The translations under genes were made by a program, and so were the position numbers. The notes beneath the pieces were generated by a model, which saw nothing but the letters and a program-made list of their open reading frames with translations, was not told the origin of the DNA and did not search any database. This document shows, piece by piece, positions 1-19,027 of a DNA stretch of 64,000 nt. The number at the start of each line of letters is the position of its first letter. Position 1 is the first letter of the stretch. Source of the DNA: Candidatus Multivoradales bacterium (lineage in GTDB: Bacteria > Acidobacteriota > Thermoanaerobaculia > Multivoradales > J023); NCBI GenBank assembly GCA_965248925.1, contig CBDFLE010000006.1, positions 2,816,001 to 2,880,000 on the forward strand, given 5' to 3'.

Positions 1-1430
1 TCACGCAAGCGTTCGGGCGCCACTAGCCGCACCGCGTGTTCGACAATCGGCACCGCTAGCAAGGCGTCTTGAGAGGCATGTTCGTTCAGCCATTCGAAGC
101 CTAAGCGGTAGCTCGTTCCCCAATAGTCCCCGGCTTGAGGCAGGCCGCGTTGGCGGGCTCCGTCCAACCCACCGGCGAACTCGTTCCAATAGGCGAGCTG
201 AAAAGGATGACTGCGCAGAGTCGCCCAGGCGCCGGGTAGCAAGAGCAGTAGCACGGCCACTGCCTTGAGACTCTCGGGGTGCCGGGCATGGCGCACGGCC
301 TTGCCAATCAACCACGAGCCACCCAAACCGGCCAATGCCGCCAGCGCCGGGAAGAGCTCCAGGAAGTGACGCACGCCATCGAAATTAACCGCTTGCGGCA
401 GCAGATAGCGCAGCATTGCCACTATCACCCAGACCCCCATCAGGCGAGCGGTGAGGTCCCCGGTCAGCGCCCGCCGAATGGCGATCACTGAACCCACCAG
501 GGCCAGGGCGAGCAACAGGGGCGGAGTGGTGAACCAGACGGCTTCGAGCACCGGGGCGATGCTCTCGGGCCGAGTGTGGCCTTGGCGAAAGCCGATGTAG
601 TCCAGGTGTTGCCACACCCGGTTCCAGGGATCGGCCCACAGATACGGCCAGCTGGCAAAAGTAGTCAGCAAGCCGAGCACTCCGCCGCCAACCAGGCTTC
701 CAATCAGCTGCCGGGTGCGGCCTCGCCAAGACACTGGCGGCCCACCGAGTAGCAGCATGCCGAGGGGAATGCCGGGCAGAAACAAAGCATTTGCTTTGCA
801 GCCGAGGGCCAGCCCCCACAGCACGCCGGTGAGCAACAGCCCGCGCACCGAACCCGATTCCCAGGCGCGCAAGAAGGCCATCAGGGTCAAGGCGTAGAGC
901 ACCAGCAGCGGAAAATCCTTGATGTTCGCCATCAGGTGGCCGAATACCCGCGGTGAACTGAGCAGTAGGACCACCGCCAGGGTTGCCGCCACCGCTCCCC
1001 AGCGAGTGGCCAAGAAGCGCCAGAAGACCCAGCTGAGGAGGGCCGCCAGCAGCGGTCCGAGGGCATGAAAACCATCGAAGGGATCGAGCCAGCCGAGGCT
1101 GCGCGAAAAGACCACCGAGCAGGCGGCCGCCAGGGTGTTGGCCACCGGGTAGTACTCCCACGGCCGGCCGCGAAAAGGCGACAGCCGTAGGTCGGGCCGG
1201 TGCTCGGCAGGATAAGGGTCGGCGGCGAAGTCCAGATAAGCCGGGTCTAGCGAAGTAAAGAACGACAGATAGCGCTGGCCAAAGAACAGATCGCCCAGAG
1301 CTTCGTCCCAGGTCACGTTATAGGATCCCAGGCTAGCGAAGCCGAGAACCAGTATGGCCAGTGCCAGCACCACGGGTAGCCAGCGTCGCCAGGACTCGCC
1401 TTCGGTCGCCGATCGCCGTTCTTTGCTCAG
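1..1430 (-). CDS. GT-C (ArnT/PMT-like) polytopic membrane glycosyltransferase, 3' end runs off window
   Basis: Not in ORF track. Hand translation from 1430: LSKERRS...WLPVVLALAILVLGFASLGSYNVTWDEALGDLFFGQRY...FGHLMANIKDFP; same frame at window edge reads LAVPIVEHAVRLVAPERLR. N-terminal TM helix followed by acidic WDE motif is typical of GT-C. Start uncertain (CTG overlapping upstream TGA, or a downstream GTG). Confidence 0.75.
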   Translation of the reverse strand, partial: MSKERRSATEGESWRRWLPVVLALAILVLGFASLGSYNVTWDEALGDLFFGQRYLSFFTSLDPAYLDFAADPYPAEHRPDLRLSPFRGRPWEYYPVANTLAAACSVVFSRSLGWLDPFDGFHALGPLLAALLSWVFWRFLATRWGAVAATLAVVLLLSSPRVFGHLMANIKDFPLLVLYALTLMAFLRAWESGSVRGLLLTGVLWGLALGCKANALFLPGIPLGMLLLGGPPVSWRGRTRQLIGSLVGGGVLGLLTTFASWPYLWADPWNRVWQHLDYIGFRQGHTRPESIAPVLEAVWFTTPPLLLALALVGSVIAIRRALTGDLTARLMGVWVIVAMLRYLLPQAVNFDGVRHFLELFPALAALAGLGGSWLIGKAVRHARHPESLKAVAVLLLLLPGAWATLRSHPFQLAYWNEFAGGLDGARQRGLPQAGDYWGTSYRLGFEWLNEHASQDALLAVPIVEHAVRLVAPERLR

Positions 1431-3316
1431 TGCAACTCCAACAGCAGATAGCCGCCGTCTGGGGACTTGTAGGTTGGCCGCACGCGGCTCGGGTCCCGCA
1501 CCAAGTCGAGCAGCTCTTGAGGGTAAGGGATGCCCCAATTCGCCTTGCGCAGCAGCAGGTGGGTGATGCCCTCGGCGGCCAAGTGCTGGTTGAGGGCCTT
1601 GGGGCCGTCTATATCCTGAAGCCAATCAACCAACTGCGAGGCTTCGAAGAAGCTATCGGCGATGTAGTCGCGCTCACAGAAGAAGGCTCGGTTGTAATCG
1701 ATCATCAACAGGCGGCTTTGCTCCGGCAGCTCATCGATGTGCAGCCACACCGGATCGATGACCGAGGCCAGCACTCGCTCGCCCTCTTCGCGCAGCAGGA
1801 TCTTGCTGGTCTGCCAGCCGCCGCGCAGCACTTTTTGTTGATCGACCACCGCCAGCAACGCCACCGAGCAGCCCAGCAACGCCCAGCCGGCTTGGCGCAT
1901 CCTGGCGTTGCGCAGCTTGCCCAGCAAATCGGCCAGTGCCAGCCCGGCGGCCAAGGCGGCCAGGGGCAGCAGGGGAACCAACAGCCGACTCTGCTGCGAA
2001 GTCAAACTCCAGAAGACAAAGCACAGGGCGACGACAAACAGTGCCCGGCGCACTGCTGGCAGTCGCCAGCCGGCGATCAAAGTCGCGGGCAGCAGTACCA
2101 GCCAGAAGGCACCTAGCCGGCCGTCGAAGTGCTCGTAACCCTGGCCGCCATTGAGCAAGACCCGAGGAATCAGCAGCAAATAATCGAGGGGCTCGCGGCC
2201 CATACCGATCGAGCTCTGCCAAGCGGCCAGTTGCTCCGCCAGCCGGGCGCTCCAACCGCTGCCGCCGAGAACCCCATAGAGCGCCGGGTACACTGGATTG
2301 CCGGTCCACCAAGCTGATTTCACCAACCACGGTGCCCACAGCACCGCCACCGGCAGGGCAAAGCGGGTGGCAAAGTCGCGGCGCAGCTCGGCACGGTGAT
2401 GTTCGGCACGGTGATGCCCGGTACCGCGCAGCAGACGCGGCAGGTAGAGCAGTGCCAGTATCGCCACGCCAACAATGCCGGTGAGCTTGGTCCCCGCCAC
2501 CATGCCGCCACAGAGGCCCGCCAGCAACAGCCAGCGTTGCCGCTCGCGGCGCTGCTCACTATCGAGCGCCTGACAGAGAAAGAGAAACGCACCGAGTAAG
2601 AAAAACGCGTGAGCCAGTTCGACATAGGCCGTCCGTAGCTCAAACATGACGACATCATTGGCGAGGAAGAACAGCGCCGCCAGCCAACCGACCCGACCGC
2701 CGCCGAGCCGCCGGCAGCCCACCACCAGGGCGTAAAGCACCGCCACTCCAAAGCCGAAGTGCAGCAGCTTGGCTAGCACATGGTCCTTGATTCCCAAGGC
2801 CAGGGCATAGAGCAGCTCGGTGTTCTGTGGCCAATGCGAATAGACATTCCACGGTAGCTCGACAAAGCCTCCATGGCGCAAGTAGATCTTCGGCAGAGTC
2901 AGATGGTAGACGCTGGCATCCCAAGAGACCGCCGGCCCCAGGGTGACCATCAAGACGGGAAGCAGATAGAGCCCCAGCAAGAGAGCCAGCACCAGCTCCC
3001 CACGGCCATAGCCCAAAGCCCCTGCGGAGTCGCTGCCGGGAGCAAGTCGTTGGCGCCAGATGGCTGCCAGGAGTAGCAAGCCCAGCATCGCCCCGGTCAG
3101 GCTCCAGGTACACAGCCAGCCCACCGCCGCCAGAGCGAAGAGCAGAGCCACCCAACAGACCAATCCCAGGCAGAGTTCGGCCAAGCCACGGTAGGCGCCC
3201 AATTCGCCGAGGCTGTAGCGAGTGCTGTTCAGGCCGCTCGCCAGCAGCCGGCCGGCGAGCCAGAAGCTCAGACCCAGGGCCAGAGCCAGCAAGCAATGCT
3301 CGAGGATGTAAAGCAT
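1427..3316 (-). CDS. GT-C superfamily membrane glycosyltransferase (629 aa)
   Basis: Many TM helices, SWDASVYHLTLPKIY first-loop motif, KLTG and GNPVYP motifs, soluble C-terminal domain. Confidence 0.75.
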   Translation of the reverse strand: MLYILEHCLLALALGLSFWLAGRLLASGLNSTRYSLGELGAYRGLAELCLGLVCWVALLFALAAVGWLCTWSLTGAMLGLLLLAAIWRQRLAPGSDSAGALGYGRGELVLALLLGLYLLPVLMVTLGPAVSWDASVYHLTLPKIYLRHGGFVELPWNVYSHWPQNTELLYALALGIKDHVLAKLLHFGFGVAVLYALVVGCRRLGGGRVGWLAALFFLANDVVMFELRTAYVELAHAFFLLGAFLFLCQALDSEQRRERQRWLLLAGLCGGMVAGTKLTGIVGVAILALLYLPRLLRGTGHHRAEHHRAELRRDFATRFALPVAVLWAPWLVKSAWWTGNPVYPALYGVLGGSGWSARLAEQLAAWQSSIGMGREPLDYLLLIPRVLLNGGQGYEHFDGRLGAFWLVLLPATLIAGWRLPAVRRALFVVALCFVFWSLTSQQSRLLVPLLPLAALAAGLALADLLGKLRNARMRQAGWALLGCSVALLAVVDQQKVLRGGWQTSKILLREEGERVLASVIDPVWLHIDELPEQSRLLMIDYNRAFFCERDYIADSFFEASQLVDWLQDIDGPKALNQHLAAEGITHLLLRKANWGIPYPQELLDLVRDPSRVRPTYKSPDGGYLLLELH

Positions 3317-3320
3317 CCGA

Positions 3321-4535
3321 TCAGTCTGCTTGAGCGATCGCCGTCCGCAGCTTGGCGGCGACCCGTTCGAGGTCCGCGAGAGTCATTTGATCAAACAATG
3401 GCAGCAAGATCGCCTGCTCCTGCGCCAGCTCCGACTCGACCAGCCGCCGGCAGCCATCGGCACCGCAGCTGCAACTGTGATCATTGGTGCGGCCGGTCCC
3501 AGGGGCACAAGACCAGGGCTGTTGCCGATAGGCCGGTTCACGATGAGCACACATGATGCCGCGACGACTGGCGACGCCTGCATCGAGCAAATGTTGCATC
3601 ACCCGGATTTGGTCACACCCCGGCGGCAGCCGCACGCAGAGGCTCTGCCAGTTAGTGCGCGCCCACGGTGGCTCGACCGGCAGCTCGAGACCAGGAATAT
3701 CACCGAGCAGCGCGAAGTACTGCTCGGCCAAAGCTCGGCGGCGCTGGACCACCGCAGGCAGGCGGCCCAGCTGCACCCTCCCCACCGCCGCCTGGATATC
3801 GGTCAGGCGGTAGTTGTAGGCCAGCTCGTCATAGGACTCGAAGACCACCTGGTGGGCGCCGTGGCGCACCGTGTCGGGCACCGTCATGCCGTGATGGCGC
3901 AGGCGGCGAAAGCGCGCATCCCAATCCGCGTCATGGGTCGTCAACATGCCGCCATCGCCGGTGGTCAGCAGTTTGCGAGGATGAAACGAGAAACACGCCA
4001 CCTTGCCATGCGGCCGGCCGATCTTCTGCCACTCGCCCCGCCAATCGATCTCCGAGCCAATCGCACAGGCGGCATCCTCGATCACCGGCAGGCCGTGTTT
4101 CTCGGCGATCGGCAGCAGCCGTGCCAGGTCGGCCGGCATGCCCATCTGGTGGACGGCCAGAATCGCCCGCGTGCGCTCGCCGATCAGTCCTTCGACCTTC
4201 GCTGGGTCCAGGTTGTAGGTCTGGCGTTCTATATCGATAAACACCGGCAGGGCATCGACAAAGCGGATGCAATTGGCGGTGGCGACAAAAGAGTGCGAAA
4301 CGGTGATCACCTCGTCACCCGGCCCCACCCCCGCCGCCAGCAGCGAGAGGTGCAGCGCTGCCGTGCAATTGGCCACCGCGCAAGCATGGCGGGCGCCGAC
4401 AAACGCGGCAAACTCCTCCTCGAACGCCAGCACCCGCGGCCCCTGGGTCACCCAACCCGAGCGCAGCGCCTCGGCCACTGCGTCGGCCTCCTCCTCACCT
4501 AGCAACGGCCGAATAATCGGCAGCGAGTCGCTCAC
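3321..4535 (-). CDS. DegT/DnrJ/EryC1/StrS PLP-dependent sugar aminotransferase
   Basis: SGWVTQGP, IEDAACAIGS, FSFHPRKLLTTGDGG (catalytic Lys), YNYRLTDIQAA; GTG start at 4535 overlaps the upstream stop. Confidence 0.93.
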   Translation of the reverse strand: MSDSLPIIRPLLGEEEADAVAEALRSGWVTQGPRVLAFEEEFAAFVGARHACAVANCTAALHLSLLAAGVGPGDEVITVSHSFVATANCIRFVDALPVFIDIERQTYNLDPAKVEGLIGERTRAILAVHQMGMPADLARLLPIAEKHGLPVIEDAACAIGSEIDWRGEWQKIGRPHGKVACFSFHPRKLLTTGDGGMLTTHDADWDARFRRLRHHGMTVPDTVRHGAHQVVFESYDELAYNYRLTDIQAAVGRVQLGRLPAVVQRRRALAEQYFALLGDIPGLELPVEPPWARTNWQSLCVRLPPGCDQIRVMQHLLDAGVASRRGIMCAHREPAYRQQPWSCAPGTGRTNDHSCSCGADGCRRLVESELAQEQAILLPLFDQMTLADLERVAAKLRTAIAQAD

Positions 4536-5512
4536 CGTCCAGCCTCCCCCGGCTTCGACGCCAGCACCCAATCCACCAGCTGGCGCAAACCCTCCCCCAG
4601 GCCCACCTCAGCTTCAAACCCCAGCACTCGGCGAGCCGCTTCGGTATCAGCTAGCCGGCGCGACACCGGATTCACCGCCCGTTCCTCGCGATACTCCACC
4701 CCCAGCGTAGAGCCCATCACGGCGAGCAGCGCCTCAGCCAGCTGCAGCAAACTGGTTTCAGTGCCCGAGGCGACATTGAACACCTGATCACCAGCCCGGC
4801 CCGCGGCCAGCGCCTTGGCGGCTAGCAAATTGGCGCGGGCGATGTCTTCGATAAAAACAAAGTCCATGGTCTGACAACCGTCGCCAAAGATCAGTGGCGG
4901 CAGGCCAGCACGAATCCGTTCGATCCAGCGGATCAGCACCTCGGTGTAGGCGCCAAAGATGTCCATCCGCGGGCCATAGACGTTGAAATAGCGCAACGCC
5001 ACATAGTCCAGGCCGTACATGTCATTGAAACTGCGCAGTAGGCCCTCGTTGAACACCTTGGCGGCGCCGTAGAGAGTGCGATTGGCATAGGGATGGTGAT
5101 CCTCGCGGGTAGGAAACTCCTCCGCCAGCCCATAGGCCGAGGCTGACGAAGCCGCCACCACCCCCCTCACCCCAGCCTCCACCGCCGCCTCGACGACGTT
5201 GAAGGTGCCATCCACCAGCACCTCGAGCGCCACCCGAGGCTCCTCGGCACAGCGGGTAATGCGGATCGCTGCCTGATGAAACACCAGGTCGATCCCCTCG
5301 GTGGTGCGCCGCAGTAGGTCACGATCGCAGATATTGCCCTCGACAACCGTCACCCGGCCATGGTCCATCGCCCAAGCCAGGTTCTCGCGCCGGCCGCGTG
5401 AGAAGTCGTCCAGGACCACCACTTCGGCGGCATCCTCGCGCATCAGCAGATCGGCAATATGCGAGCCGACCAGGCCCGCACCGCCGGTGATAAGAATTCT
5501 CTTGCCGCGCAT
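4532..5512 (-). CDS. NAD-dependent nucleotide-sugar epimerase/dehydratase (extended SDR)
   Basis: GGAGLVG Rossmann motif, ASSASAYG, YGAAK (YxxxK), RYFNVYGP. Confidence 0.93.
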   Translation of the reverse strand: MRGKRILITGGAGLVGSHIADLLMREDAAEVVVLDDFSRGRRENLAWAMDHGRVTVVEGNICDRDLLRRTTEGIDLVFHQAAIRITRCAEEPRVALEVLVDGTFNVVEAAVEAGVRGVVAASSASAYGLAEEFPTREDHHPYANRTLYGAAKVFNEGLLRSFNDMYGLDYVALRYFNVYGPRMDIFGAYTEVLIRWIERIRAGLPPLIFGDGCQTMDFVFIEDIARANLLAAKALAAGRAGDQVFNVASGTETSLLQLAEALLAVMGSTLGVEYREERAVNPVSRRLADTEAARRVLGFEAEVGLGEGLRQLVDWVLASKPGEAGR

Positions 5513-5726
5513 CTTTCTCCCCTCGCTGGGATTCTCTGGGTGGTTGTTCCGGAGGGGGGCAGTTTATACCTCTGGGGGGTTGGGGTGGTGGGTGCCTGGA
5601 TCATGAAAACGAAGCTCAAGCAGTGTCGACTGGTTCAGTTGCGGCAGTGGGCGGTCTCGGACTCAGATCTGGTGTTACATTTTCGGCTAACAGTGGTGCG
5701 TTGCTGCTGCCACTTGCGCTGTAACT

Positions 5727-5753
5727 GAGCATGAGCATCAGCATCAGCATCAG
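5727..5753 (+). repeat. Hexanucleotide tandem repeat (G/C)AGCAT x4.5
   Basis: gagcat gagcat cagcat cagcat cag just upstream of the RBS of the next gene. Confidence 0.7.
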
Positions 5754-5771
5754 ATGTTGGGAGGGGCACGG

Positions 5772-6626
5772 GTGCTGAAAAATATCCTGGTCCTCGGTGC
5801 CGGAACCTTGATCATTGGCCTCTTGATCTTGGATCTTCTAACAACCCTTGCCCCGAACGATTTCCAGACTTCCTGGCAAGAACCTCCGGGCGGCTCGACC
5901 TATCGTGCCGATGTCGAGATCCAGCGGCTTCGCTTTGACCAGATACACGGCACGCTGCGAGCGGTACTTGGACTTGTCTTGGTACGGTCGGCTCAAGATG
6001 ACGAGATTTCGAAGTTCAGTTTCAGTTTGCAGAGTTCCGGCAGCGAAGGGACCACTTACTGGTTGCCATATCCGGAAACCTGGCCGATGCCGGGTACTAC
6101 TTGGGAAGAGATTCGCGGCGAAGAGAGCTTCGACGTTCTCGAGGCCAGTCAGGAAATGACGCTGTTTGTCAACCAGAGAACTCGCCAAACGTTATATCCG
6201 TTTGATGATATTACTCTGCGATTTCTCCCCAGAGGATTCGTTGACGGCGGGGTACTTGATCCGGATCTGTGGGTCCACAGTTTTTCAGTTAGTCTTTCAG
6301 ACCCAAACTTCCACTTGCTCTGCTCGGTTGATGAGAGTGAGGTTGTTTGTCAACTGAAGCGAAGCGCCTTCGTTCGCATGATTAGCGTGGCATTGCTGGC
6401 CTGTGTGTTGGTGTTTTATTTCTATCTATTCCGACTGACCAGTCGTGACGAATTACTTGCCAAGACGTTGGGCTTCATGGGCGCACTCTGGGGTGTTCGC
6501 TCGGTGCTAGTTCCGCGCTCTTTGGCTGTTTTTCCCTCTTTGATCGATTACGTCGTGTTGATCCTTTTCTTTGTCTTGTTTCTAACCGTCATCGCAACTG
6601 TTCAGCCTGCCAGGCCTAACCCATAG
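5772..6626 (+). CDS. Membrane protein resembling DUF4436 / Pro-loop (pentameric ligand-gated) channel fold
   Basis: GGAGG RBS at 5760-5764, GTG start; N-terminal TM, beta-rich domain with LYPFD, LKR before three C-terminal TM helices, VPRSLAVFPSLIDY loop. Confidence 0.55.
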   Translation: MLKNILVLGAGTLIIGLLILDLLTTLAPNDFQTSWQEPPGGSTYRADVEIQRLRFDQIHGTLRAVLGLVLVRSAQDDEISKFSFSLQSSGSEGTTYWLPYPETWPMPGTTWEEIRGEESFDVLEASQEMTLFVNQRTRQTLYPFDDITLRFLPRGFVDGGVLDPDLWVHSFSVSLSDPNFHLLCSVDESEVVCQLKRSAFVRMISVALLACVLVFYFYLFRLTSRDELLAKTLGFMGALWGVRSVLVPRSLAVFPSLIDYVVLILFFVLFLTVIATVQPARPNP

Positions 6627-6636
6627 GAGGGAAAAC

Positions 6637-7170
6637 ATGAAGAATACGTCATTTTTTGTACTGCTGATTGCCTTAGCTGGGTGGGGCGTCAGCACCTTGG
6701 CTCAGGATCAGGAGATGCCCTTGGGCAAGACTTCGCTTGAGCTTCCCACAACCCTGGCGATCGAGTCCGAGGAAGTATCGAAGCTCCGGGTGGTCAGAGG
6801 CCGAGAAATCGCATTCGTGCAGAGGGACGATGGAGACTATGTGCTCAACAAAATGCTGCCCTACGGTGCGATTGTCGACGATCCGAAAACAAAGCGACCG
6901 CGCAACGGTCTAATTGTGGAGTATCAGATCTATGCCCAAGACGATCAAGCATTCTTCGTTGAGATAATTGTTCCGAGAATGCAACACAAAGGTCTAGCGG
7001 ATAGCGAATTCGAAGCGAGTCTCTCAGGTAACGCACTAGTTGATGACTTGGTCTCGGCTTTGGCACTCCAAGTAAGATCTGGTACGCACAGCTGCGCTAA
7101 CGGTCGGGTTTGTGTCAAGACCCGTAAAGTCGACGGGGTTGAAAAGTGTTGCCGATACAAATGTCGATGA
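6637..7170 (+). CDS. Secreted hypothetical protein with Cys-rich C-terminal tail
   Basis: AGGAGG RBS, signal peptide MKNTSFFVLLIALAGWGVSTLA, ends HSCANGRVCVKTRKVDGVEKCCRYKCR; 10 bp after previous gene. Confidence 0.75.
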   Translation: MKNTSFFVLLIALAGWGVSTLAQDQEMPLGKTSLELPTTLAIESEEVSKLRVVRGREIAFVQRDDGDYVLNKMLPYGAIVDDPKTKRPRNGLIVEYQIYAQDDQAFFVEIIVPRMQHKGLADSEFEASLSGNALVDDLVSALALQVRSGTHSCANGRVCVKTRKVDGVEKCCRYKCR

Positions 7171-7248
7171 ACGAGAGGGGTGCGGCTGATCATCTGTTGG
7201 AGCAGCCGACGGCAGACCTGGTGCCGCCGGCCTGACTGCCCGGACCAA

Positions 7249-7267
7249 GTGCCAGCCGATTCTCGGC
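7249..7267 (+). repeat. Island repeat copy R1 (5'-shortened)
   Basis: GTGCCAGCCGATTCTCGGC; degenerate GGTGCCGCCGG also at 7220-7230. Confidence 0.75.
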
Positions 7268-7364
7268 CATTGCGGCGAGTAGACCTGAAGCCGTCAGTGC
7301 AAACCCACGAAGCTTGCCGAGGGCGATCTATCCGCCCAAATGTCTCTGAAGAAGACGGCGGCAG

Positions 7365-7390
7365 GGAATAGGTACCAGCCGATTCGCAGC
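7365..7390 (+). repeat. Island repeat copy R2
   Basis: GGAATAGGTACCAGCCGATTCGCAGC, 11 bp beyond the antitoxin stop codon. Confidence 0.85.
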
Positions 7391-7401
7391 CACCTTGGTG
7401 G

Positions 7402-7791
7402 TCATTGGCCTGTAGCCGCGGAAACCGCCGCGGCAAGATCGGGTGAACGAGATCTACCGCGCCCACTTGCCGCCGTTCTCAGCGGATTACGAGGAACTTG
7501 CGCTGCCTTGCCCGGTGCCTCCGACGGAGTCAGTTGTATGCGAAGTTCTGCTCCGAGCGCCTTCGCCAGCCGGACCATGGTCATCAGGGTGAAGTTGGCG
7601 TTACCGCGCAGGATCTTGGTGATGTAGGCGGGGGAAGTACCAAGTCGGCGAGCCAACTCCGACCTCGACACCTCTTCCCGTTCCATCAGGCGGAAGATCT
7701 CCTCGGTGAATTCCTGCACGGTGCCGGCGAGCCAATAGTCGTCGTGTCCTTCGGCTCTTTTGTAGAGATCGTCGAAGTTCTTGGCTTTCAT
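7402..7791 (-). CDS. XRE-family HTH antitoxin (HigA-like)
   Basis: SRSELARRLGTSPAYITKILRGNANFTL helix-turn-helix; directly downstream of RelE-like toxin. Confidence 0.85.
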   Translation of the reverse strand: MKAKNFDDLYKRAEGHDDYWLAGTVQEFTEEIFRLMEREEVSRSELARRLGTSPAYITKILRGNANFTLMTMVRLAKALGAELRIQLTPSEAPGKAAQVPRNPLRTAASGRGRSRSPDLAAAVSAATGQ

Positions 7792-7796
7792 CGTCT

Positions 7797-8189
7797 CTAT
7801 CCTTTCATTTTGAGAGCGGCTTGCCCTTTTGCCAAGAAGTACTGGCGTCGGTACTCTTGCGCTCTTTCGATCTCGGTTGCCGGGGTCTTCTGGCGCTTTT
7901 TTACGAAGCCGTGACTACAAATCACCAGCTTGCCCTCGTCGTAGAACCAGAGTACCCGGACTCGGCCCTGGATGAACTCCCAGAGCCCAGGCCCGAGCTG
8001 ATGGGAGATCTCCGTATTGCGTGGCGGGCCGTGGTCAGCGACCCGATCAAGAAGCTTGAGCATCCGACGACCGTCTCTTGCGAGCCCGCCTTCAATTTCT
8101 GCCAGAAACTGCAGAAGCGGGCAGTCACCGCGATCGGTGCAGACCGCCAAGACTTGCCAACCTCCACTTCGGACCCGCCGTAACCTCAT
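7797..8189 (-). CDS. Type II toxin, RelE/HigB (Gp49-like) family
   Basis: ATG 8189 with GGAGG RBS; GLWEFIQGRVRVLWFY...HGFVKKRQKTPATEIERA signature; toxin-first order. Confidence 0.88.
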   Translation of the reverse strand: MRLRRVRSGGWQVLAVCTDRGDCPLLQFLAEIEGGLARDGRRMLKLLDRVADHGPPRNTEISHQLGPGLWEFIQGRVRVLWFYDEGKLVICSHGFVKKRQKTPATEIERAQEYRRQYFLAKGQAALKMKG

Positions 8190-8208
8190 TTTAACCTCCA
8201 GGTTCAAA
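8189..8208. promoter_or_regulatory. Imperfect palindrome over toxin RBS/start, candidate TA autoregulatory operator
   Basis: TTTTAACCT-CC-AGGTTCAAA, 9-bp arms with one mismatch. Confidence 0.5.
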
Positions 8209-8341
8209 CGGTGGCAAGCAGGATCTTGCTCATTGTCGATCCTGACCGCCCACGAGGGGTTCGCAACGTGCTGCGGCCCAGCCTCCTCAGCTGAGCCAGC
8301 CAAGCCGATATCGCGTATCCTAGAAGGTCTGGAGGTACTGT

Positions 8342-8371
8342 ATGGCGACGACAATCCAATACTACCCTGAG
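8342..8371 (+). pseudogene. 10-codon stub resembling a DUF2283-type antitoxin N-terminus, cut by repeat R3
   Basis: GGAGG RBS then ATG: MATTIQYYPE, similar to the IxY(Y/D)PE(T)D start of DUF2283 proteins; runs straight into the repeat. Confidence 0.4.
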
Positions 8372-8409
8372 ATAGGTGCCAGCCGATTCGCAGCTGCCGA
8401 TTCGCAGCT
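8369..8409 (+). repeat. Island repeat copy R3 with internal 14-bp tandem duplication
   Basis: GAGATAGGTGCCA GCCGATTCGCAGCT GCCGATTCGCAGCT. Confidence 0.88.
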
Positions 8410-8592
8410 ACTCGGACCTCCGGCCCCTTCGGCCAGGACCCTCTGCCTCCTCTGCACTCTATCCAGCGACCCGTCGCCGATCGTCGAGCTAGCAGAGAGC
8501 TTGTGCGAGAGTGATCGCGTGCGCACAGCCAGCATTGTCGAGAGCGTGGTAGATTGTCCCTCTCCAGGTAATATGCCCGGAGGACGATTCTC

Positions 8593-8874
8593 GTGAGTGG
8601 AGCGAGTACACCGAGCATTGAGTATCCGCCCGAGGTTCTTTGGGCTCTTCAGCAGGCCCCCGAAAAGTTTGCCGCCGAGGCTCGCCTGCTCCTTGCCCTC
8701 AAGCTCTATGAGATGGGCAAGCTGACCACCGGCATGGCGGCTCGGCTTGCTGGGATCCCACGCCTTCGCTTCATCTTCTTGGTGGGCGAACATGGCCTCT
8801 CCCCCTTCGGCGAGGCGCCCGAAGATCTCGAACAAGATCTCGCCGATGCCCGAAGGGCCTGTCGTTGCGAATAA
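8593..8874 (+). CDS. UPF0175 family antitoxin
   Basis: GGAGG RBS; EARLLLALKLYEMGKLTTGMAARLAGIPRLRFIFLVGEHGLSPF...EDLEQDL. Confidence 0.85.
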   Translation: MSGASTPSIEYPPEVLWALQQAPEKFAAEARLLLALKLYEMGKLTTGMAARLAGIPRLRFIFLVGEHGLSPFGEAPEDLEQDLADARRACRCE

Positions 8875-8948
8875 CACGCCCCTCGCGGCTCTCTGGGCGA
8901 TCGACCGTCTGGATCTACTGGAGTCTTTGTTCAGCGAGATCCTGATCC
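8846..8948 (+). pseudogene. Truncated PIN-domain (DUF3368-like) toxin
   Basis: MPEGPVVANNTPLAALWAIDRLDLLESLFSEILI matches the N-terminus of DUF3368-type PIN proteins that pair with UPF0175; similarity ends at repeat R4 where P..V..E is expected. Confidence 0.8.
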
Positions 8949-8973
8949 GAGATAGGTGCCAGCCGATTCTCGG
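8949..8973 (+). repeat. Island repeat copy R4
   Basis: GAGATAGGTGCCAGCCGATTCTCGG. Confidence 0.88.
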
Positions 8974-9110
8974 GAGCTTGGTTGAGGTTGTCGGCGGCAA
9001 AAGCCCTAAACGCAGCAGGGGCAGCCCGGCCTGGCCGGCAACTGCCCCGTCTTTCTTCTGCAAAGAAGGAGTGCGGCCCTCGCTAGAGCCGCACCGGGTC
9101 TGAGCGGGTC

Positions 9111-9947
9111 CTACTGACGCTTACCGCACACTGGATTGATGCAGTGGTCGTGGGGGGCGGTGCCGAAGGAGCTGTGGCAGCTCGTCAGAGCGGCGTTGGC
9201 AGTCCAGCAGTCGACGTCTTCAGTGTCGCAGGAGCGGCCTGGGAAGAAATTGGTCGTACCCGGCAGGACCAAGTCGGGGCGGCCATCGCAGTTGGTGTCC
9301 ACCTTGAACGGACTACTCACTTCGAGATCGCCAGGCCCTGCATTGGTGCAGAAACCCATGCCGTCGATGGCCAGGGTCACCGGGTGGGAAACCGGACCGC
9401 GAACTTCGCCAGTCGCAATATTGGTGAAGTTCAGGCATACATTGACCGACAGGTTGCCAGAGAACTTGCCGCAGTTCTCACACCCCAAATCGGCCTTGAT
9501 CTTGGTGGCATCTTGGCACTCACACAGACAGGCACTGACCCGCCAGCTGGTATCACCGGTTGCCGGGCAAAAGACGTTGATGACGTCGTTGCTGAACAGA
9601 TTGAGGGCGCGGATAACGATTGCAGAAGTTACATCGCCGGAGGCGAAGTCGATCGGATCGAGGCGTTCGACCACGGTATCCGCGTTGCCGAGGATGCCCG
9701 GAGGATCGGTCACCAAGGGCGCGCCCTGAAATGTCACCGAACCGGTGAAAGGGGGAGAGCCGGCGCAGAAGAAGCCGGCTGGAATGGGAACGGCGGAAAA
9801 ATCGGCCACGCTCGGCACGGTGCTCGAAGTCTGGAATGCGTCGATGCCGGGGACGATGTACGGGGGTTGGGCGATAGCCGGAGCGCAGAGCAAGGCCACC
9901 ACAGTCAGGCTAAAGCAAAGCCTAATCCAAGAATTTCTCATGAGCAT
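9111..9947 (-). CDS. Secreted Cys-rich hypothetical protein
   Basis: AGGAGG RBS, signal peptide ending APAIA, 15 Cys in the mature chain (CLCEC, CENC). Confidence 0.8.
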   Translation of the reverse strand: MLMRNSWIRLCFSLTVVALLCAPAIAQPPYIVPGIDAFQTSSTVPSVADFSAVPIPAGFFCAGSPPFTGSVTFQGAPLVTDPPGILGNADTVVERLDPIDFASGDVTSAIVIRALNLFSNDVINVFCPATGDTSWRVSACLCECQDATKIKADLGCENCGKFSGNLSVNVCLNFTNIATGEVRGPVSHPVTLAIDGMGFCTNAGPGDLEVSSPFKVDTNCDGRPDLVLPGTTNFFPGRSCDTEDVDCWTANAALTSCHSSFGTAPHDHCINPVCGKRQ

Positions 9948-10213
9948 ATCCTCCTAAATTTGTCGAAAAACAAAAGCATCCGCGAAGCTAGGCCTCGGGT
10001 CAGACGGATGCCGGTTCAGCAATCTGACCAGCGCGCATTGTAGAGATCTTTAGTGAACACCCACTTCTTTGAACTTGCGGAATGCAGAGCGTTATCATCT
10101 CAACTAATTGCCTGGAACCGGGCTGCTGGGGCTCGCCGCAGAGAGCCTCTGATCCCCCCTAGGAGGTGGCTGCCGAGGCTTTGTTAGAGACTAGGCGCGG
10201 ATTAGGTGCCGCC

Positions 10214-10240
10214 GGAATAGGTGCCAGCTGACTCGCGGCT
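10214..10240 (+). repeat. Island repeat copy R5 (diverged)
   Basis: GGAATAGGTGCCAGCTGACTCGCGGCT, preceded by partial TAGGTGCCGCCG at 10203. Confidence 0.75.
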
Positions 10241-10330
10241 ACCCTGGGAAGGGCAGCAGAAGCGGGGCGGTATAGTGTCGCCAGCTCGATTCCCAACCCG
10301 CTACCTGCAAGCGACCCGAGATCCTCGTTG

Positions 10331-11296
10331 ATGAACCAAGAGCCCCTCCCCCCGTCCTCGCCGGAGCTAACCCTCGTCACCCCGGCTTACGATGAAGAGC
10401 GCAATCTGCCGCTGCTCTACGAGCGCCTGTGCGTGGCGCTCGACGGCGTCGATTGGGAGTGGGTGGTGGTGGACGATCATTCCACCGATCGAACTTTCGC
10501 GGTGGTGCAATCACTGGCGGCGGCGGATCCGCGGGTGCGGGGAATTCGCCTGTCGCGCAATTGTGGTTCGCACAGCTCGGTTCAGTGTGGAATCGAGCAC
10601 GCCCGCGGGGCGGGTGTGGTGGTCATGGCCTCGGATCTACAGGATCCGCCGGAGTCGATTCCGCAGCTGCTGGTCGAATGGCGGGCGGGGGCGCAGGTGG
10701 TGTGGGCGGTGCGCGAGGAACGCCAGGGCGAATCGCTGGCCACCCGCGGTTCATCGCGGGTCTACCATTGGATGATGCGCCATGTGGTTGGGATGAAGGA
10801 GCTGCCGTCAACCGGCGCTGACTTCTTTCTGATCGACCGGCTAGTGGTCGATGCCTTAGCGAGATTCCAGGAGCGCAATGGCAGCATCTTCACCCTGATC
10901 ACCTGGCTTGGTTTCCGTCAGACCTCTATCTTCTACAGCAAGGCGGCGCGGGCTCACGGCAGCTCGAAGTGGACGCTCGAGAAGAAAGTCAAACTGGCGT
11001 TGGACTCGGTGTTGTCGTTCAGTTACCTGCCGATCCGGCTAATCTCCTACCTCGGCATCACGGTGGCCTTTTTCGGCTTGCTCTACGCCAGCGCGGTGAT
11101 TTACAACGCCCTGACCGGCGCCCCGGCCGATGGTTGGTCGTCGTTGATGGTGGTGGTGCTGGTACTCGGTGGCATGCAGATGACGATGATGGGAGTGCTC
11201 GGCGAGTATCTCTGGCGGGCGCTCGACGAGGCCCGCCGCCGCCCTCTCTACACTGTTGAAGCCACTACCCTTCTTCAGCGAGGGGGAGGTAGTTGA
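10331..11296 (+). CDS. GT2 polyprenyl-phosphate glycosyltransferase (GtrB/ArnC-like)
   Basis: PAYDEE, VDDHSTD, LSRNCG, SDLQDPP motifs and two C-terminal TM helices. Confidence 0.9.
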   Translation: MNQEPLPPSSPELTLVTPAYDEERNLPLLYERLCVALDGVDWEWVVVDDHSTDRTFAVVQSLAAADPRVRGIRLSRNCGSHSSVQCGIEHARGAGVVVMASDLQDPPESIPQLLVEWRAGAQVVWAVREERQGESLATRGSSRVYHWMMRHVVGMKELPSTGADFFLIDRLVVDALARFQERNGSIFTLITWLGFRQTSIFYSKAARAHGSSKWTLEKKVKLALDSVLSFSYLPIRLISYLGITVAFFGLLYASAVIYNALTGAPADGWSSLMVVVLVLGGMQMTMMGVLGEYLWRALDEARRRPLYTVEATTLLQRGGGS

Positions 11297-12221
11297 GTAG
11301 CAGACCGCCAGCGCAGGCCAGCGACAAGACCACGGTGACGGCCCGTGCCAGCATGACGGTCTCAGCACCACCACCGATTGCCAGCTGTTGGTAGAGCACC
11401 GCCGCTACCGAATCGGTCACTCCAAGGGCCATTGGCGTCGTCGGGATGCTGGATGCAAGTTGAATCGCTGGCGCTACCTGGAGCACTTGCCGTGGCGAAA
11501 CTCCTAAACCAAGGGCCGCGAATGCGCACCAGGAGGCGAAGAAGCTGAACAGATGGCCCACTAATGACAGCAGGAAGGCGAAGGTGAGGACACCGGGCTG
11601 CCGGCGATAGTCGGCAAGGGCCCGCGACAGGGAGTGCAACCAGCTGCCGGCCGGCGGGCGTCCAAGACGTTGGATCAACGCCAAGGCAATCACGGCGGCC
11701 AGCAGCGCCAGGGCGCTCCAGCTGAGAATCTGCCGGCCGAGCTGGCCGCCAAGACCAACCATGAGGCGGCTGGAGAGCACCGCCATCAGCAGCAGCAGGG
11801 CGCCGAGACCGAGCAGGCGGTCGATCACCAAGCTCGAAATCAGCCGCCCCTTGCGTTGCTTGGCTAGCGGCGCAAGGTAGTAGATCTTGGCGCCGTCCAG
11901 GCCCAGGCCAGAGGGCAGGAAGGTGTTGCTGAACATGCCGATCAAGCCGATCTGCAGAGCCGCTCCGGCGCTCAGCTCGAAGCCTTGGGCGCGCACTAAG
12001 CGCAACCAGCGCCAGACCTGGCAGACCACGGAGAGAATCAAGCCCGCCACCAAACCGGCCAACGGCCAGCCTGGGCGTAAGGCCAGCAAGGTGGCGAAAT
12101 CGAATCGGCTGCTGCTGACCAACCAGGCGATTAGGATCCCAGCCAAGACCAGCTTGAGTGCCGTGCCGAGCCAGCCCAAGCGTGTACCGGCCGGGGGACT
12201 TGGGGGCAGCGAAGCCCTCAC
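11265..12221 (-). CDS. Lysylphosphatidylglycerol synthase TM-domain (UPF0104) flippase-like membrane protein
   Basis: RW..L, IG.F.N.FLPSGLGLD..K, S..IDR..GL, IP.TP..LG motifs. Confidence 0.85.
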   Translation of the reverse strand: MRASLPPSPPAGTRLGWLGTALKLVLAGILIAWLVSSSRFDFATLLALRPGWPLAGLVAGLILSVVCQVWRWLRLVRAQGFELSAGAALQIGLIGMFSNTFLPSGLGLDGAKIYYLAPLAKQRKGRLISSLVIDRLLGLGALLLLMAVLSSRLMVGLGGQLGRQILSWSALALLAAVIALALIQRLGRPPAGSWLHSLSRALADYRRQPGVLTFAFLLSLVGHLFSFFASWCAFAALGLGVSPRQVLQVAPAIQLASSIPTTPMALGVTDSVAAVLYQQLAIGGGAETVMLARAVTVVLSLACAGGLLLNYLPLAEEG

Positions 12222-12258
12222 CCTGCCTCGATCATCGGCGATCGCCTGGGGGCGCCGA

Positions 12259-12741
12259 TCATTGATAGCGAGCCTCTCGAGCGTCGCCGGCCACCCGCGC
12301 CGGCACGCCGAGAACTACCGCATGCGCGGCGACGTCTTGGGTGACCACCGCGCCGGCCCCCACCAGCGCTCCTCGGCCGATCGCGATGCCTCCCAACAAG
12401 GTCGCGTTGGCGCCCAAGGAGGCGCCGAAACCCACTCGGGTGAGCAAAGCCCGCCAATCGTCGTCGGTCTGTAGGCGGCCGGCGAGGGTCGCTCGCGGGT
12501 GCAGGCCGTTGACGAACATCACCCCATGACCAACGAATACTTCGTCCTCGATCGTCACGCCCTCACAAATGAAGGCGTGGCTGCTGAGCTTGCAGCGACA
12601 GCCGATCTCGGCCCCCTTCTGGACCTCGACAAAGGGTCCGATCTGGGTGCCGGCGCCGATCCGGCAACCATAAAGGTTGACCAGCTGCGGGTGAGGAATG
12701 TGGACCCCTTCGCCGAGTTCAACGTCCTCAGCGATCGGCAT
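12259..12741 (-). CDS. Hexapeptide-repeat sugar N-acyltransferase (WbpD/WlbB-like), copy B
   Basis: VNLYGCRIG, GPFVEVQKG, GAGAVVTQDV, GVPAR left-handed beta-helix. Confidence 0.9.
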   Translation of the reverse strand: MPIAEDVELGEGVHIPHPQLVNLYGCRIGAGTQIGPFVEVQKGAEIGCRCKLSSHAFICEGVTIEDEVFVGHGVMFVNGLHPRATLAGRLQTDDDWRALLTRVGFGASLGANATLLGGIAIGRGALVGAGAVVTQDVAAHAVVLGVPARVAGDAREARYQ

Positions 12742-13813
12742 CCTCAGCCTCCGTGGCTGGAGTTTCGCTGTGGTTGAGGTCTCGTTCATGAAGGGTGGCC
12801 AGGCCCTCGTCCACGGCAGCTCGTTCGACGGTCTTGCAGTCGAGCCCGCGCCTGCGGCCGCGGGCGAGTACTTCGCCGACTTTCAAGCCCCCGGCCTGCA
12901 ATCGAGCCACCGGCTCGGGCCCGAGGTCGGAAGGCAGCACTCCCATGTGGCCGGGAACGTTGTTGAGGGGCCAAGTAGGTAGGGGCGGATCGCTGGGTAG
13001 GTCGCCCCAGAAGCGCACCAGCGGGGTACCCGGAAAACGCTCGGCAAAGGCTGCCAGCTCGGCCCCACCGAGCACCGGCTGCTGCCGTGGCTGCATCGCC
13101 ACCAGGATCGCGTCGGGAGCCAGCGGCAGATCCTGTGGTAGCTCGGCCACGATCGTGAGTCTCGCTCCGGCATTTTCCAAGCTCCGTTTTAAGTAGGGCT
13201 CGAAGGGGGTGTTCGACAGCAGTAGCAGCTGGCTGCCGTAAACCGCGACACCGGCGTCGAACAATAATTTCTGCGCCATCGGGCCGAGGTAGGAGAACAC
13301 GTCCACCGCCGGGTGGCGCTCGTTGGTACCGGCGATGGCGATGTGGTGGCGATAACAGGCTTGCAGGTCGACATCTTCAGGCCGCAGTTCCCAGGCCTCG
13401 TACATCAAGGTCACCACAGCGGTGGGCTTCATCCAGCTCACCAGGCGGGCGCCGATCGGCCGCAAATGACCGCTGTTGGTGATGATGTCGGCGCTACCTA
13501 CCTGCGCCGGGTCGAGTTCGAAGATCACTTGCAGCTGCTCCTCGACGCCTCCCATAGCGAGCAGCTGATGGGTCGCGGCGTGCACTTCACGGGCGCTACC
13601 CCAGCGGCTGTCGGCGGTGTATGCCAGCACTCTCTCGGCGCCGGCCAAGGCGGCGATCAAGGGGGTGATGGCGTAGGCGCCGCTGGCTGCTTCGGTGAGC
13701 ACCACTAGGCCGCGCAAGTCGAGCTTGCAGCGTTCGACGGCGGCTCGCGACAGACTCAGGAGTCGCTGGGGGTGAAGGCCCGGAAGGCTAGCGTTGGGCT
13801 TGGCCCTAGGCAC
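12728..13813 (-). CDS. Hypothetical protein, possible Rossmann-like enzyme in sugar pathway
   Basis: 361 aa overlapping both neighbours; VLTEAASGAY, ADIITNSGHLRP, LMYEAWELR; no family recognised. Confidence 0.7.
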   Translation of the reverse strand: MPRAKPNASLPGLHPQRLLSLSRAAVERCKLDLRGLVVLTEAASGAYAITPLIAALAGAERVLAYTADSRWGSAREVHAATHQLLAMGGVEEQLQVIFELDPAQVGSADIITNSGHLRPIGARLVSWMKPTAVVTLMYEAWELRPEDVDLQACYRHHIAIAGTNERHPAVDVFSYLGPMAQKLLFDAGVAVYGSQLLLLSNTPFEPYLKRSLENAGARLTIVAELPQDLPLAPDAILVAMQPRQQPVLGGAELAAFAERFPGTPLVRFWGDLPSDPPLPTWPLNNVPGHMGVLPSDLGPEPVARLQAGGLKVGEVLARGRRRGLDCKTVERAAVDEGLATLHERDLNHSETPATEAEDADR

Positions 13814-14834
13814 TGATTTCCACCGGCTGGCCGTTGTTGGCCAGTGATTTGTTGGCGGCTTCGAGGATCTTCACCACCCGCAGGCCGGCCTGACCGTCGC
13901 TGACCGCCGCGGTGTGGTGTTCGATGCGGTCGGCGAAGTGCTCGGCCTCTACCCCCAGGGCCTCGGCACGTTCCAGCTGCGGCGCCCACATGTCGCCGGT
14001 GCGGTAGCCCACCAGGCGTTCGTAGATTTGCTGCGGGTCGTCGACCCCATCGTCGCCCAAGGTCACTCCACTGTCGTAGAGCTTGACCTTCTCGCTGGGT
14101 TCCAGATCGTCGTAGATGATCATCCGACGGTCGCCGCCGATCAAGGTCTGGCGGATCTTCACCGGTGCCAGCCAATTGACATGGATGTGGGCGATCAGCC
14201 GGCTGTCACCGAACAGGCAAGTCAGGTAGGCGAGGTTCTCCAACTGACCGGGTATGTGGGCCATGCCGGTGGCCGACACCATGCTGGGAGGCTGGCCCAG
14301 CACGTAGTCCATGATCGATAGGTCGTGGACCGCCAGATCCCAGAGCACGTTGACATCGTGCTGGAAGAGCCCCAGATTGACCCGCACCGAATCGTAGTAG
14401 TAGAGTTCGCCGAGCTCGCCGTCGCGCACCAGCTGGCCGATCTTGCGCACCGCGCCGGTGTAGAGAAAAGTGTGGTCAACGTGCAGCACCAGGCCTTTGC
14501 TGGCGGCTAGCTCGATCAACCGCTCGGCTTGCTCGGTGGTGGCGGTCAGCGGCTTCTCCAACCAGACGTGCTTACCTGCCTCCAGGGCGGCTCGGGCGAG
14601 CTGGTAGTGGCTGGCGGTGGGGGTGGCGATGGCCACTGCGTCGACCGCCGGATCGGCGATCAGGCGGTTGGCGTCGGCGTAGGAGGTGAGGCCAGGATAG
14701 CGCCGGCCAGCGGCTGTCAATCGCCGCTCGTCGCGATCGGCCACCGCCCGCAGGTCGAGGCGCGGCGATTGGTTGAAATTGCGCACCAGGTTGGGGCCCC
14801 AATAGCCGTAGCCGATCACTCCAATACCAATCAT
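13806..14834 (-). CDS. Gfo/Idh/MocA family oxidoreductase (WbpB/WlbA-like)
   Basis: GVIGYGYWG, HVWLEKP, WDLAVHD. Confidence 0.92.
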   Translation of the reverse strand: MIGIGVIGYGYWGPNLVRNFNQSPRLDLRAVADRDERRLTAAGRRYPGLTSYADANRLIADPAVDAVAIATPTASHYQLARAALEAGKHVWLEKPLTATTEQAERLIELAASKGLVLHVDHTFLYTGAVRKIGQLVRDGELGELYYYDSVRVNLGLFQHDVNVLWDLAVHDLSIMDYVLGQPPSMVSATGMAHIPGQLENLAYLTCLFGDSRLIAHIHVNWLAPVKIRQTLIGGDRRMIIYDDLEPSEKVKLYDSGVTLGDDGVDDPQQIYERLVGYRTGDMWAPQLERAEALGVEAEHFADRIEHHTAAVSDGQAGLRVVKILEAANKSLANNGQPVEISA

Positions 14835-15337
14835 CCTCTCTCCTCCTCATTGTTCATACGGTAGCGTTCTTGGCGGGCATCACCCACCACCCGCGCCGGC
14901 ACGCCGAGCACCACCGCATAGTCGGGCACGTCACGGGTCACCACCGCTCCCGCGCCCACTAAAGCGCCGCGGCCAATGGTGATGCCGCCTAACAGGGTAG
15001 CCTTGGAGCCGATCGAGGCCCCGTGGCAAACGCGGGTCGGCAAGAGCTGCCAATCGTCCTCGCCCAGCAGCTGGCCGGCGGCGGCGGCGCGCGGGTGTTT
15101 ATCGTTGACGAACATCACCCCGTGGCCGATGAAGACCTCGTCTTCCAGGGTCACACCTGCACAAAGGAACGAGTGGCTGCTGACTTTGCACAGCCGGCCA
15201 ATCTCGGCCCCTTGCTGGATCTCTACGAAGGGTCCAATCTGTGAGCCATCGCCGATCCGGCAGCCGTAGAGATTGACCAGCTCGGGGTGGTGGATCTTGA
15301 CCTCAGCACCCAGCTCTACGTTGTCGCCGATCGGCAT
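14831..15337 (-). CDS. Hexapeptide-repeat sugar N-acyltransferase, copy A
   Basis: Same motifs as copy B; ATGA-coupled to the oxidoreductase. Confidence 0.9.
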   Translation of the reverse strand: MPIGDNVELGAEVKIHHPELVNLYGCRIGDGSQIGPFVEIQQGAEIGRLCKVSSHSFLCAGVTLEDEVFIGHGVMFVNDKHPRAAAAGQLLGEDDWQLLPTRVCHGASIGSKATLLGGITIGRGALVGAGAVVTRDVPDYAVVLGVPARVVGDARQERYRMNNEEERG

Positions 15338-15338
15338 T

Positions 15339-18954: not shown

Positions 18955-19027
18955 CGTGTGGGGGCGCCAGATCGCTGGTTCAAGAGGGTTGAGTTCACTG
19001 CTCTGGATGCTAACATCCACCCCCCTT

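Follow-up and report, generated by a model that had tools for sequence, protein, structure and literature searches.

How does a short repeat come to sit in every gap between the unrelated genes of a small island? The question is raised by a 64,000-nucleotide stretch of DNA (the window) from a Candidatus Multivoradales bacterium of the Thermoanaerobaculia (GCA_965248925.1, contig CBDFLE010000006.1). The window is C6:2816001-2880000 of a 7.98-Mb assembly (label G000) with 62% GC. Within 3 kb of it stand five co-oriented copies, R1 to R5, of a 23-nt repeat with the core GGTGCCAGCCGATTC. An earlier note on this DNA took them for the borders of a gene-capture hotspot, and that interpretation is partly supported. 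In the reading favoured here, to which we assign a probability of about three in four, the five repeats are solo outer ends of a TIRtron system, in which genes resembling the tyrosine transposases (RAYT) that go with repetitive extragenic palindromes (REPs) lie between terminal inverted repeats (TIRs). The system would act in trans, and its ends would have collected in a dispensable foreign island. The motif forms both ends of RAYT-like units, and the family is dispersed across one order of Thermoanaerobaculia.

A search of both strands of the window with the 23-mer at up to three mismatches gives five matches, all on the plus strand. Five co-oriented copies and none further in the 64 kb is what the earlier note had counted; its sites were correct and its positions were off by -4 or +3 bases. 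The chance expectation is nil, with no match in 100 dinucleotide shuffles of the window. R1 (7245-7267, CCAAGTGCCAGCCGATTCTCGGC) is the most degenerate copy, with three mismatches to the 23-mer and one in the 15-nt core. R2 (7368-7390, one mismatch) lies 12 nt past the stop of an opposite-strand HigA-like gene. R3 (8372-8394) equals the consensus without mismatch, occupies the divergent gap between a HigB gene and a UPF0175 gene, and is followed by a 14-nt partial duplication, GCCGATTCGCAGCT. R4 (8952-8974, one mismatch) falls where a DUF3368/PIN-like frame stops resembling its full-length paralogues. R5 (10217-10239, two mismatches) stands in the divergent gap between a gene for a Cys-rich protein and a family-2 glycosyltransferase (GT2) gene, and a partial GGTGCC iteration at 10205-10210, just before it, is of the type that occurs at the element ends described below.

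Transposase units that end in the motif

Open reading frames (ORFs) within 1.5 kb of a motif copy were clustered from hand-picked loci with Acidobacteriota titles and from 11 neighbourhoods in the window's own genome. The largest cluster, with 14 loci, is a RAYT-like protein of about 305 aa. A same-strand motif (up to three mismatches) lies upstream in 10 of 12 RAYT-like genes, either 12-651 nt from the start or inside the 5′ end of one over-long ORF. An inverted motif follows 213-277 nt downstream in six of the 12, and five have both sides, counts to be read with two of the 12 loci ending at the gene and offering no downstream sequence. At least one canonical side is present in 11 of the 12, which amounts to REP-style inverted flanking of the transposase gene; one gene has three upstream copies in reverse orientation. 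The idea that a trans-acting HUH enzyme of the RAYT type stands behind the repeat is thus borne out to the extent that the 15-mer brackets RAYT-like Y1 genes in inverted orientation, both here and in relatives.

The family profile finds 19 matches in the genome, 12 full-length and seven partial, the nearest at C6:2885839-2886750, 59.6 kb from R5. The window itself contains no RAYT-like gene, full or partial, and none of the genome's 37 matches to the tyrosine recombinase family PF00589, of which the nearest is at C6:2916262. The search across the window covered these two families, and within this scope the absence of a visible recombinase holds. The RAYT gene for which it had been suggested to look exists as 12 full-length copies elsewhere in the genome and as none in the window. 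Among 41 relatives, the RAYT-like family is present in 35.

The 12 full-length genes fall into about five subfamilies, with some pairs 93-100% identical and others 37-63%. Such near-identical multi-copy genes suggest, from sequence comparison, that the transposase gene itself may still be moving. One group of copies was seen to share more than the gene: C5:709130 and C5:1438300 are 100% identical and C6:3632741 is 97% identical. Their common DNA extends 0.5-1.3 kb upstream of the gene, and these three may ride on a larger duplicated segment.

Subfamily B (C6:892183, 1750449, 2885839, 3751762 and 3366266) delimits the unit. Three of its four other copies have 89.6-93.6% DNA identity to the reference, from about -52 to -158 before the gene through +290 to +342 after it; for the fifth, which is more distant, blastn found no match. 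What these copies have in common opens with GGTGCCACCC and closes with the inverse of the same ten bases, and the flanks beyond are unrelated. Because the shared stretch starts and ends at the motif, the motif is the terminal inverted repeat of a unit of about 1.4 kb. Both ends carry ragged outward iterations of GGTGCC plus 6-7 bases in variable copy number, which may be the footprint of repeated cutting and rejoining at the terminus. One copy has its left end truncated inside the motif. The motif also varies by subfamily (AGCCGATTC, AGCCAATTC, ACCCGATTC and ACCCAAGTC). In the proposed system, the outer end would be a 15-nt terminal inverted repeat, GGTGCCAGCCGATTC, extended to about 22-28 nt in this genome (GARATAGGTGCCAGCCGATTCGCAGCYAC), and a TIRtron would be a unit of about 1.4 kb in which inverted copies of the motif bracket a RAYT-like HUH/Y1 gene of about 305 aa.

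The encoded family is, by its motifs and predicted fold, a HUH/Y1 RAYT-like transposase. It matches the Pfam Y1_Tnp and NCBIfam REP_Tyr_transpos models (E = 4e-4 and 7.6e-8), both under their cut-offs. Its HUH motif, NH(Y/F/M)HLL, is aligned with HVHLL of ISDra2 TnpA, and both histidines (H62 and H64) are invariant across 40 sequences. The equally invariant Y123, the predicted catalytic tyrosine, aligns with ISDra2 TnpA residue 132, which is mutated in 2XO6 ('Y132F'). Among PDB sequences, an eight-member profile matches ISDra2 TnpA, and the alignment pairs the HUH histidines as well as the C-terminal tyrosine. For an AF2 model with pLDDT 89.9, the top Foldseek match is 4ER8_A, the E. coli RAYT with REP (E = 3.8e-6, target TM 0.69), followed by ISDra2 and IS608 TnpA. 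There are at least 915 homologues at E <= 1e-5, many of them named 'REP element-mobilizing transposase RayT' (JGI) or 'transposase', and many have a precomputed PF01797 match. The tyrosine motif has the consensus RLRYLLSHGxKEGLV over the 40 sequences, and the C-terminal part of about 150 aa has no match.

Dispersal of the motif across one order

The 15-mer GGTGCCAGCCGATTC occurs nine times exactly in the genome and 27 times at up to one mismatch. With the 22-mer consensus ATAGGTGCCAGCCGATTCGCAG at up to three mismatches there are 16 copies, four of them in the window, where R1 is too degenerate to be counted, and the reversed control gives none. Beyond this genome, the 17-mer core with one mismatch allowed is found in 18 of the 41 genomes of the family and order (control 0 or 1 per genome). 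Of 301 Acidobacteriota genomes, 12 belong to the same order, and four of these have several exact copies of the 15-mer (9, 12, 4 and 2 copies). The 15 from the class's other orders have no match, and five of the 274 from elsewhere in the phylum have a single one; the control gives 0 throughout. Over 185,579 species genomes, a 16-mer gave at least 112 stretches. Among the 80 listed titles, 25 are Thermoanaerobaculia and 12 are Acidobacteria or Acidobacteriota, which include all listed multi-copy stretches, and the remaining listed stretches are single matches, as chance predicts. Rather than being novel, as had been proposed, the repeat is an order-wide family of the known REP/TIR kind that accompanies RAYT/TIRYT genes, as set out in the available text of PMC3733652.

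The dispersed motif takes the form of singlets, direct tandems and a few inverted pairs. Among 156 distinct copies from the genome and related loci, 47 have a direct partner and 14 an inverted partner within 90 nt; the rest are solitary. They are not the short hairpin repeats that they had been called. The 45 nt downstream of the 156 copies have a minimum free energy of -13.39 against -13.17 for shuffled sequence (p = 0.34), and the window copies with their flanks, on either strand, fold as shuffles do (z 0.00 to -1.53, 10 folds). A GCAG/GTAG tag with a stem after the motif, picked out by eye in R2, R3, R5, C6:2609016, 2610025 and 4208366, was dropped as not general over the 156 copies. All Rfam families, searched at E <= 10 over 5000-11000, gave three chance-level matches and none on a repeat.

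Four of the eight other own-genome loci examined adjoin RHS-repeat genes, and for this reason the copies in this genome appear to lean to accessory DNA. One of the eight adjoins a helix-turn-helix (HTH) gene and two SymE-like genes, one is also next to an IS21 helper gene and one next to an ISL3 fragment. The earlier note had named a genome-wide intergenic element without enrichment at variable modules as what would speak against capture; the repeat largely is such an element, but for the half of these loci that lie beside RHS genes. The RHS-linked copies were seen just past the 3′ ends of RHS genes (C5:687925, C5:710328, C6:2544398 and C6:2609016-2610039), and at the last of these, three co-oriented copies bracket one 148-aa ORF beside the RHS gene.

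In relatives this lean is absent, and copies lie between haem-operon genes and beside MetH, pullulanase, sensor kinases and permeases. Some lie within genes. The hemL gene of a Thermoanaerobaculia metagenome-assembled genome (L068, 6031-6100) has an in-frame insertion of 21 residues relative to the hemL of the present genome, beginning directly after the native GGTGCCACC, which encodes VVPP. In the relative G002, genes resembling those of non-ribosomal peptide synthetases (NRPS; L018, L019, L020 and L098) have modules with one, two or three EVPADS units at a spacing of 21 or 27 nt. In-frame entry into essential genes at sites resembling the first ten bases of the motif hints at the position of the cut.

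These insertions bear on where solo ends come from. Each window copy might instead be left over from the insertion of a full TIRtron at this place, the rest having since been deleted or overwritten. The seven partial RAYT-like genes indicate that decay occurs in this genome, and the subfamily-B copy cut inside its left motif points the same way. All five window copies are left-end-like and run in the same direction, and R5 has an outward GGTGCC iteration as real element ends do. Even so, we consider this origin unlikely. The window holds no RAYT-like coding remnant, and beyond about 22-28 nt the island matches nowhere else in the genome. The motif insertions of 45-70 nt in relatives' housekeeping genes, such as hemL, are in frame and leave the genes intact; a whole element inserted and then deleted would not have kept these genes in frame.

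A host function for the sequence is the least probable of the alternatives. The host might keep the sequence as a site for protein binding or regulation, such as the operator of an XRE-type HTH protein, with the transposase link secondary; this would fit the conservation of the 15-mer to the base across families of one order. It would also fit the copies just 3′ of HTH genes: R2 after HigA, C4:253171, and the copies of an 8-kb element. Against such a site stand the place of the motif at the inverted ends of duplicated units, its in-frame copies inside coding DNA, its ragged tandem arrays with partial iterations, its lack of dyad symmetry of its own and its erratic copy number, 0 to 21 per genome among the 41 relatives.

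The favoured reading, solo TIRtron ends spread in trans, accommodates these placements by a series of conjectured steps. By analogy with REP/RAYT systems, the Y1 enzymes would act on the motif in trans. The gene at C6:4208580-4209521, 1.38 Mb from the window, is probably the best candidate because the three copies adjoining it match the window's 22-mer consensus within two mismatches. By the same kind of analogy, the enzymes would nick single-stranded DNA at or beside the GGTGCC terminus; the outward iterations at element ends, the partial copy before R5 and the hemL insertion beside a native look-alike all argue for a cut at that terminus. Short end-units would then be pasted into motif-like or tolerant sites, giving singlets, micro-duplications and occasional deletions.

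Two further observations concern the neighbourhood of motif-like sequences in this genome. About 130 nt after the motif copy at C6:2958665 is a tRNA- or tmRNA-like 3′ end (GGTTCGAATCC...CACCA). At least 14 near-identical genes for a 372-aa tyrosine recombinase are scattered over the assembly (C5:923200-976003, C4:72331, C6:1348660, C6:3501654-3517752 and C6:3627729), several in a row about 7.5-12 kb apart. Some of them have, about 5 kb away, the motif-like GGTGCCAACCGTTTC with a GC-rich hairpin beside an HTH gene and two SymE-like genes. Together, the recombinase genes and the motif-like sequence look like a large multi-copy mobile element.

An accessory island in a rearranged glycan locus

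The island consists of accessory DNA low in GC and lies where the synteny of a glycan locus is broken. It lies between a minus-strand gene for an NAD-dependent epimerase (4532-5512) and the plus-strand GT2 gene (10328-11296). Its GC content is 50-54% at 5.5-7.25 kb and 56-62% from there to 10.25 kb; the flanks have 62-68%. On the plus strand, a 290-aa membrane protein with four predicted transmembrane segments (5754-6626; no Pfam family, a DUF4436-like Atlas lead) is followed by a 177-aa secreted protein (6637-7170; no Pfam family). On the minus strand come a HigA-type antitoxin (7402-7791; HTH_3/HTH_31) and a HigB/RelE-type toxin (7797-8189; Gp49, PF05973). A UPF0175 antitoxin-like gene (8593-8874, plus strand) precedes the N-terminal stump, of about 33 aa, of a DUF3368/PIN-like toxin (8849-8950, plus strand) that is cut off at R4. 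A 278-aa secreted Cys-rich protein (9111-9947, minus strand) has no Pfam match and belongs to a hypothetical family restricted to Acidobacteriota. A foreign origin is hinted at by the Atlas, where the clusters that resemble the 290-aa protein are DUF4436-like and most frequent in Pseudomonadota. At blastn sensitivity, 5400-10400 has no match in the rest of the genome, and no module is duplicated.

The modules named in the earlier note are present as HigBA, UPF0175 and the secreted Cys-rich protein; its channel-like pair corresponds to the 290-aa and 177-aa proteins, and its PIN gene is a 33-residue stump. The stump frame begins at 8849, overlaps the 3′ end of the UPF0175 gene, runs for 33 residues and then enters R4. 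Pfam returned nothing for the 34- and 84-aa versions at E <= 10, and the identity of the stump rests on comparison with paralogues. The genome has four other UPF0175-ORF pairs whose ORF N-termini match the stump; one paralogue, L154:606-1088, is a 160-aa DUF3368 protein with 45% identity to the stump over 29 aa (E = 2e-6). On this comparison, R4 coincides with the truncation of a DUF3368/PIN toxin gene. A single insertion or deletion at R4 would have removed most of it.

The surrounding locus has itself been rearranged. Epimerase, DegT and GT2 genes are adjacent and co-directional in 17 of 31 metagenome loci of at least 6 kb (hand count). In the window, the epimerase-DegT pair (3321-5512) has been turned round with respect to GT2, with the island at the break. 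LbH and 361-aa genes were noted on the other side of the rearranged locus. Among 80 metagenome loci (JGI) with an orthologous GT2 gene, 52-66% identical, none encodes any of the six island proteins (E <= 1e-5). No conspecific locus was found, the closest GT2 being 44% identical among 24 species-level relatives and at most 66% in JGI metagenomes. A scan of window positions 1-20000 found no tRNA genes.

In the favoured reading, the island would be a foreign, dispensable patchwork of two toxin-antitoxin modules, two secreted or membrane proteins and one Cys-rich protein, placed at the rearranged point of the glycan locus. Repeats would be found in every island gap because such elements survive in non-coding, dispensable DNA. 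Foreign island DNA tolerates insertions, so the repeats would collect in its gaps and come to resemble cassette borders.

The resemblance invites the opposite interpretation, a cassette array without an integrase, in which a HUH enzyme moves whole modules as single-strand circles at the co-oriented repeats. The Y1 enzyme would cut two GGTGCC termini, free a single-strand circle with one repeat and re-insert it at another copy. Y1 enzymes do excise DNA between two cleavage sites as circles, as in IS608 and ISDra2, and co-oriented repeats fill every gap between unrelated modules whose GC contents differ. The three co-oriented copies around the 148-aa ORF beside an RHS gene (C6:2609016-2610039) form a second such group. 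Were this true, toxin-antitoxin and RHS-associated modules would be shuffled and accumulated without an integrase, and the broken PIN gene would be a capture error. It is nonetheless improbable, and nothing supports an integron-style capture of genes at the repeats. At R4 a gene is cut in two rather than bounded, no module occurs twice in the genome, and not one of the 80 loci with an orthologous GT2 has an island gene. Relatives have the motif inside core-metabolism operons and housekeeping genes, and no joint or structural variant at the repeats appears in the contigs of one sample. The gene-capture hotspot of the earlier note is not supported on these grounds, and its observation that attC ends are lacking holds. 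Both strands of 5500-10400 are free of RYYYAAC...GTTRRRY pairs with a spacer of 40-130 nt, and the 60 nt to either side of each repeat contain neither RYYYAAC nor GTTRRRY.

The contigs just mentioned come from four runs of one sample in one study and cover 4800-10900. Run contigs drop rare variants, and the sample is probably the source sample; the lack of a variant in them has no bearing on excision. The tandem array C6:4208366-4208455 accounts for a 146-nt contig with matches at R2 and R3.

Other identities for the repeats were considered and set aside. Three were dropped by eye against consensus sequences: a sigma-54 promoter, a tRNA 3′ end and complementarity to the 3′ end of 16S rRNA. Irregular spacing spoke against CRISPR, type III antitoxin RNA and plasmid iterons, as did the lack of any partner gene noticed in the ORF listings, in which no directed search was made.

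Several points weigh against solo TIRtron ends in a tolerant island. Five same-orientation copies within 3 kb are the densest set in the genome, which tolerant DNA explains incompletely, and the contigs of the four runs show a single form with the island in one piece. The candidate gene at C6:4208580 has its three copies upstream and opposite to the canonical orientation, and its 5′ flank is not common to its 90%-identical paralogue. Many RAYT-like genes occur without the exact motif (24 gene matches and no copies in G009, 28 and none in G016). Conversely, G002 (93% complete, 640 contigs) has 21 motif matches and no RAYT-like gene at E <= 1e-3; many of its copies sit in paralogous NRPS-like modules with homologous flanks, and may thus come from module duplication. 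A comparison of motif count with RAYT-like gene count over the 41 relatives was uninformative because subfamilies carry different motif variants. The protein family stays below the curated thresholds: Pfam Y1_Tnp (PF01797) at E = 4e-4 and 20.9 bits, under the cut-off of 23, and NCBIfam REP_Tyr_transpos (NF047646) at E = 7.6e-8 and 32.4 bits, under the cut-off of 80, with nearly the whole model covered. Finally, YLLSHGxKE fits no Y---NP or Y----Q signature in Table 1 of PMC6006769, as far as the available part of that paper extends.

Comparison with known systems

The island is like an integron attC array in its co-oriented repeats between unrelated small modules rich in toxin-antitoxin genes. 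It differs in having no intI, no attC R''/R' ends and no hairpin, in repeats that are too short and in one boundary inside a gene. What seemed an integron without an integrase reduces to a known kind of selfish repeat, REP/TIR with a RAYT-like gene, in disposable DNA.

With the IS200/IS605 elements (IS608 and ISDra2 TnpA), the system has in common the HUH/Y1 fold and the catalytic residues, both as predicted. The ends of IS200/IS605 elements are subterminal hairpins without terminal inverted repeats, whereas the ends here are an inverted repeat of 10-15 nt. The ORF listings around the genes, in which no directed TnpB search was made, showed no TnpB partner.

The REPtron of E. coli (TnpA-REP, RayT/YafM, 4ER8) is the best structural match, and there too the gene stands between inverted repeats and the repeats are dispersed. 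Intragenic REP copies are also known, according to the available text of PMC3733652. In contrast to REPs and REPINs, the copies here have neither the GTAG-plus-palindrome structure nor a hairpin, and direct tandems outnumber inverted doublets, 47 to 14 of 156. A genome here has 12 gene copies against about one, and the protein has a C-terminal extension of about 150 aa.

Among the TnpAY1 classes of Quentin et al. 2018 (PMC6006769), as given in the available part of that work, the NHYH-type HuH motif is that of subclasses 2.1, 2.3 and 2.8. The long C-terminal domain and a copy number above five in a genome recall subclass 2.3. The tyrosine motif YLLSHGxKE fits neither the class 2 Y---NP signature nor those of class 1 and class 3 in its Table 1. 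Subclass 2.1 is there largely equated with TIRYTs, and subclasses 2.1 and 2.3 are reported without associated repeats.

The closest likeness is to the TIRtrons, or TIRYTs: RAYT-like genes between non-REP inverted repeats that are also dispersed as singles, dimers and groups. The available text of Di Nocera et al. 2013 (PMC3733652) describes them and includes a sharply defined, Acidobacteria-specific TIRYT group. The system here likewise combines a RAYT-like Y1 gene, non-hairpin inverted flanks and a family dispersed as single, dimer and group copies. It differs in that the 15-mer and its 28-nt extension lack GGGGWSAS, a motif of many but not all TIRs in that text, in that the genes are multi-copy, with pairs 93-100% identical, and in that Thermoanaerobaculia lie outside the survey as far as its available text goes. 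The system is thus an ordinary REP/TIR-type repeat of the TIRtron/TIRYT kind, locally dense. Its interest for REP/RAYT biology is that a 15-nt end, unchanged to the base in several families of one order, nevertheless forms no hairpin. It is served by a multi-copy enzyme subfamily with a large C-terminal domain and a tyrosine motif outside the signatures published in the available part of PMC6006769. Thermoanaerobaculia could therefore be a test bed for the copying of hairpin-less TIR families.

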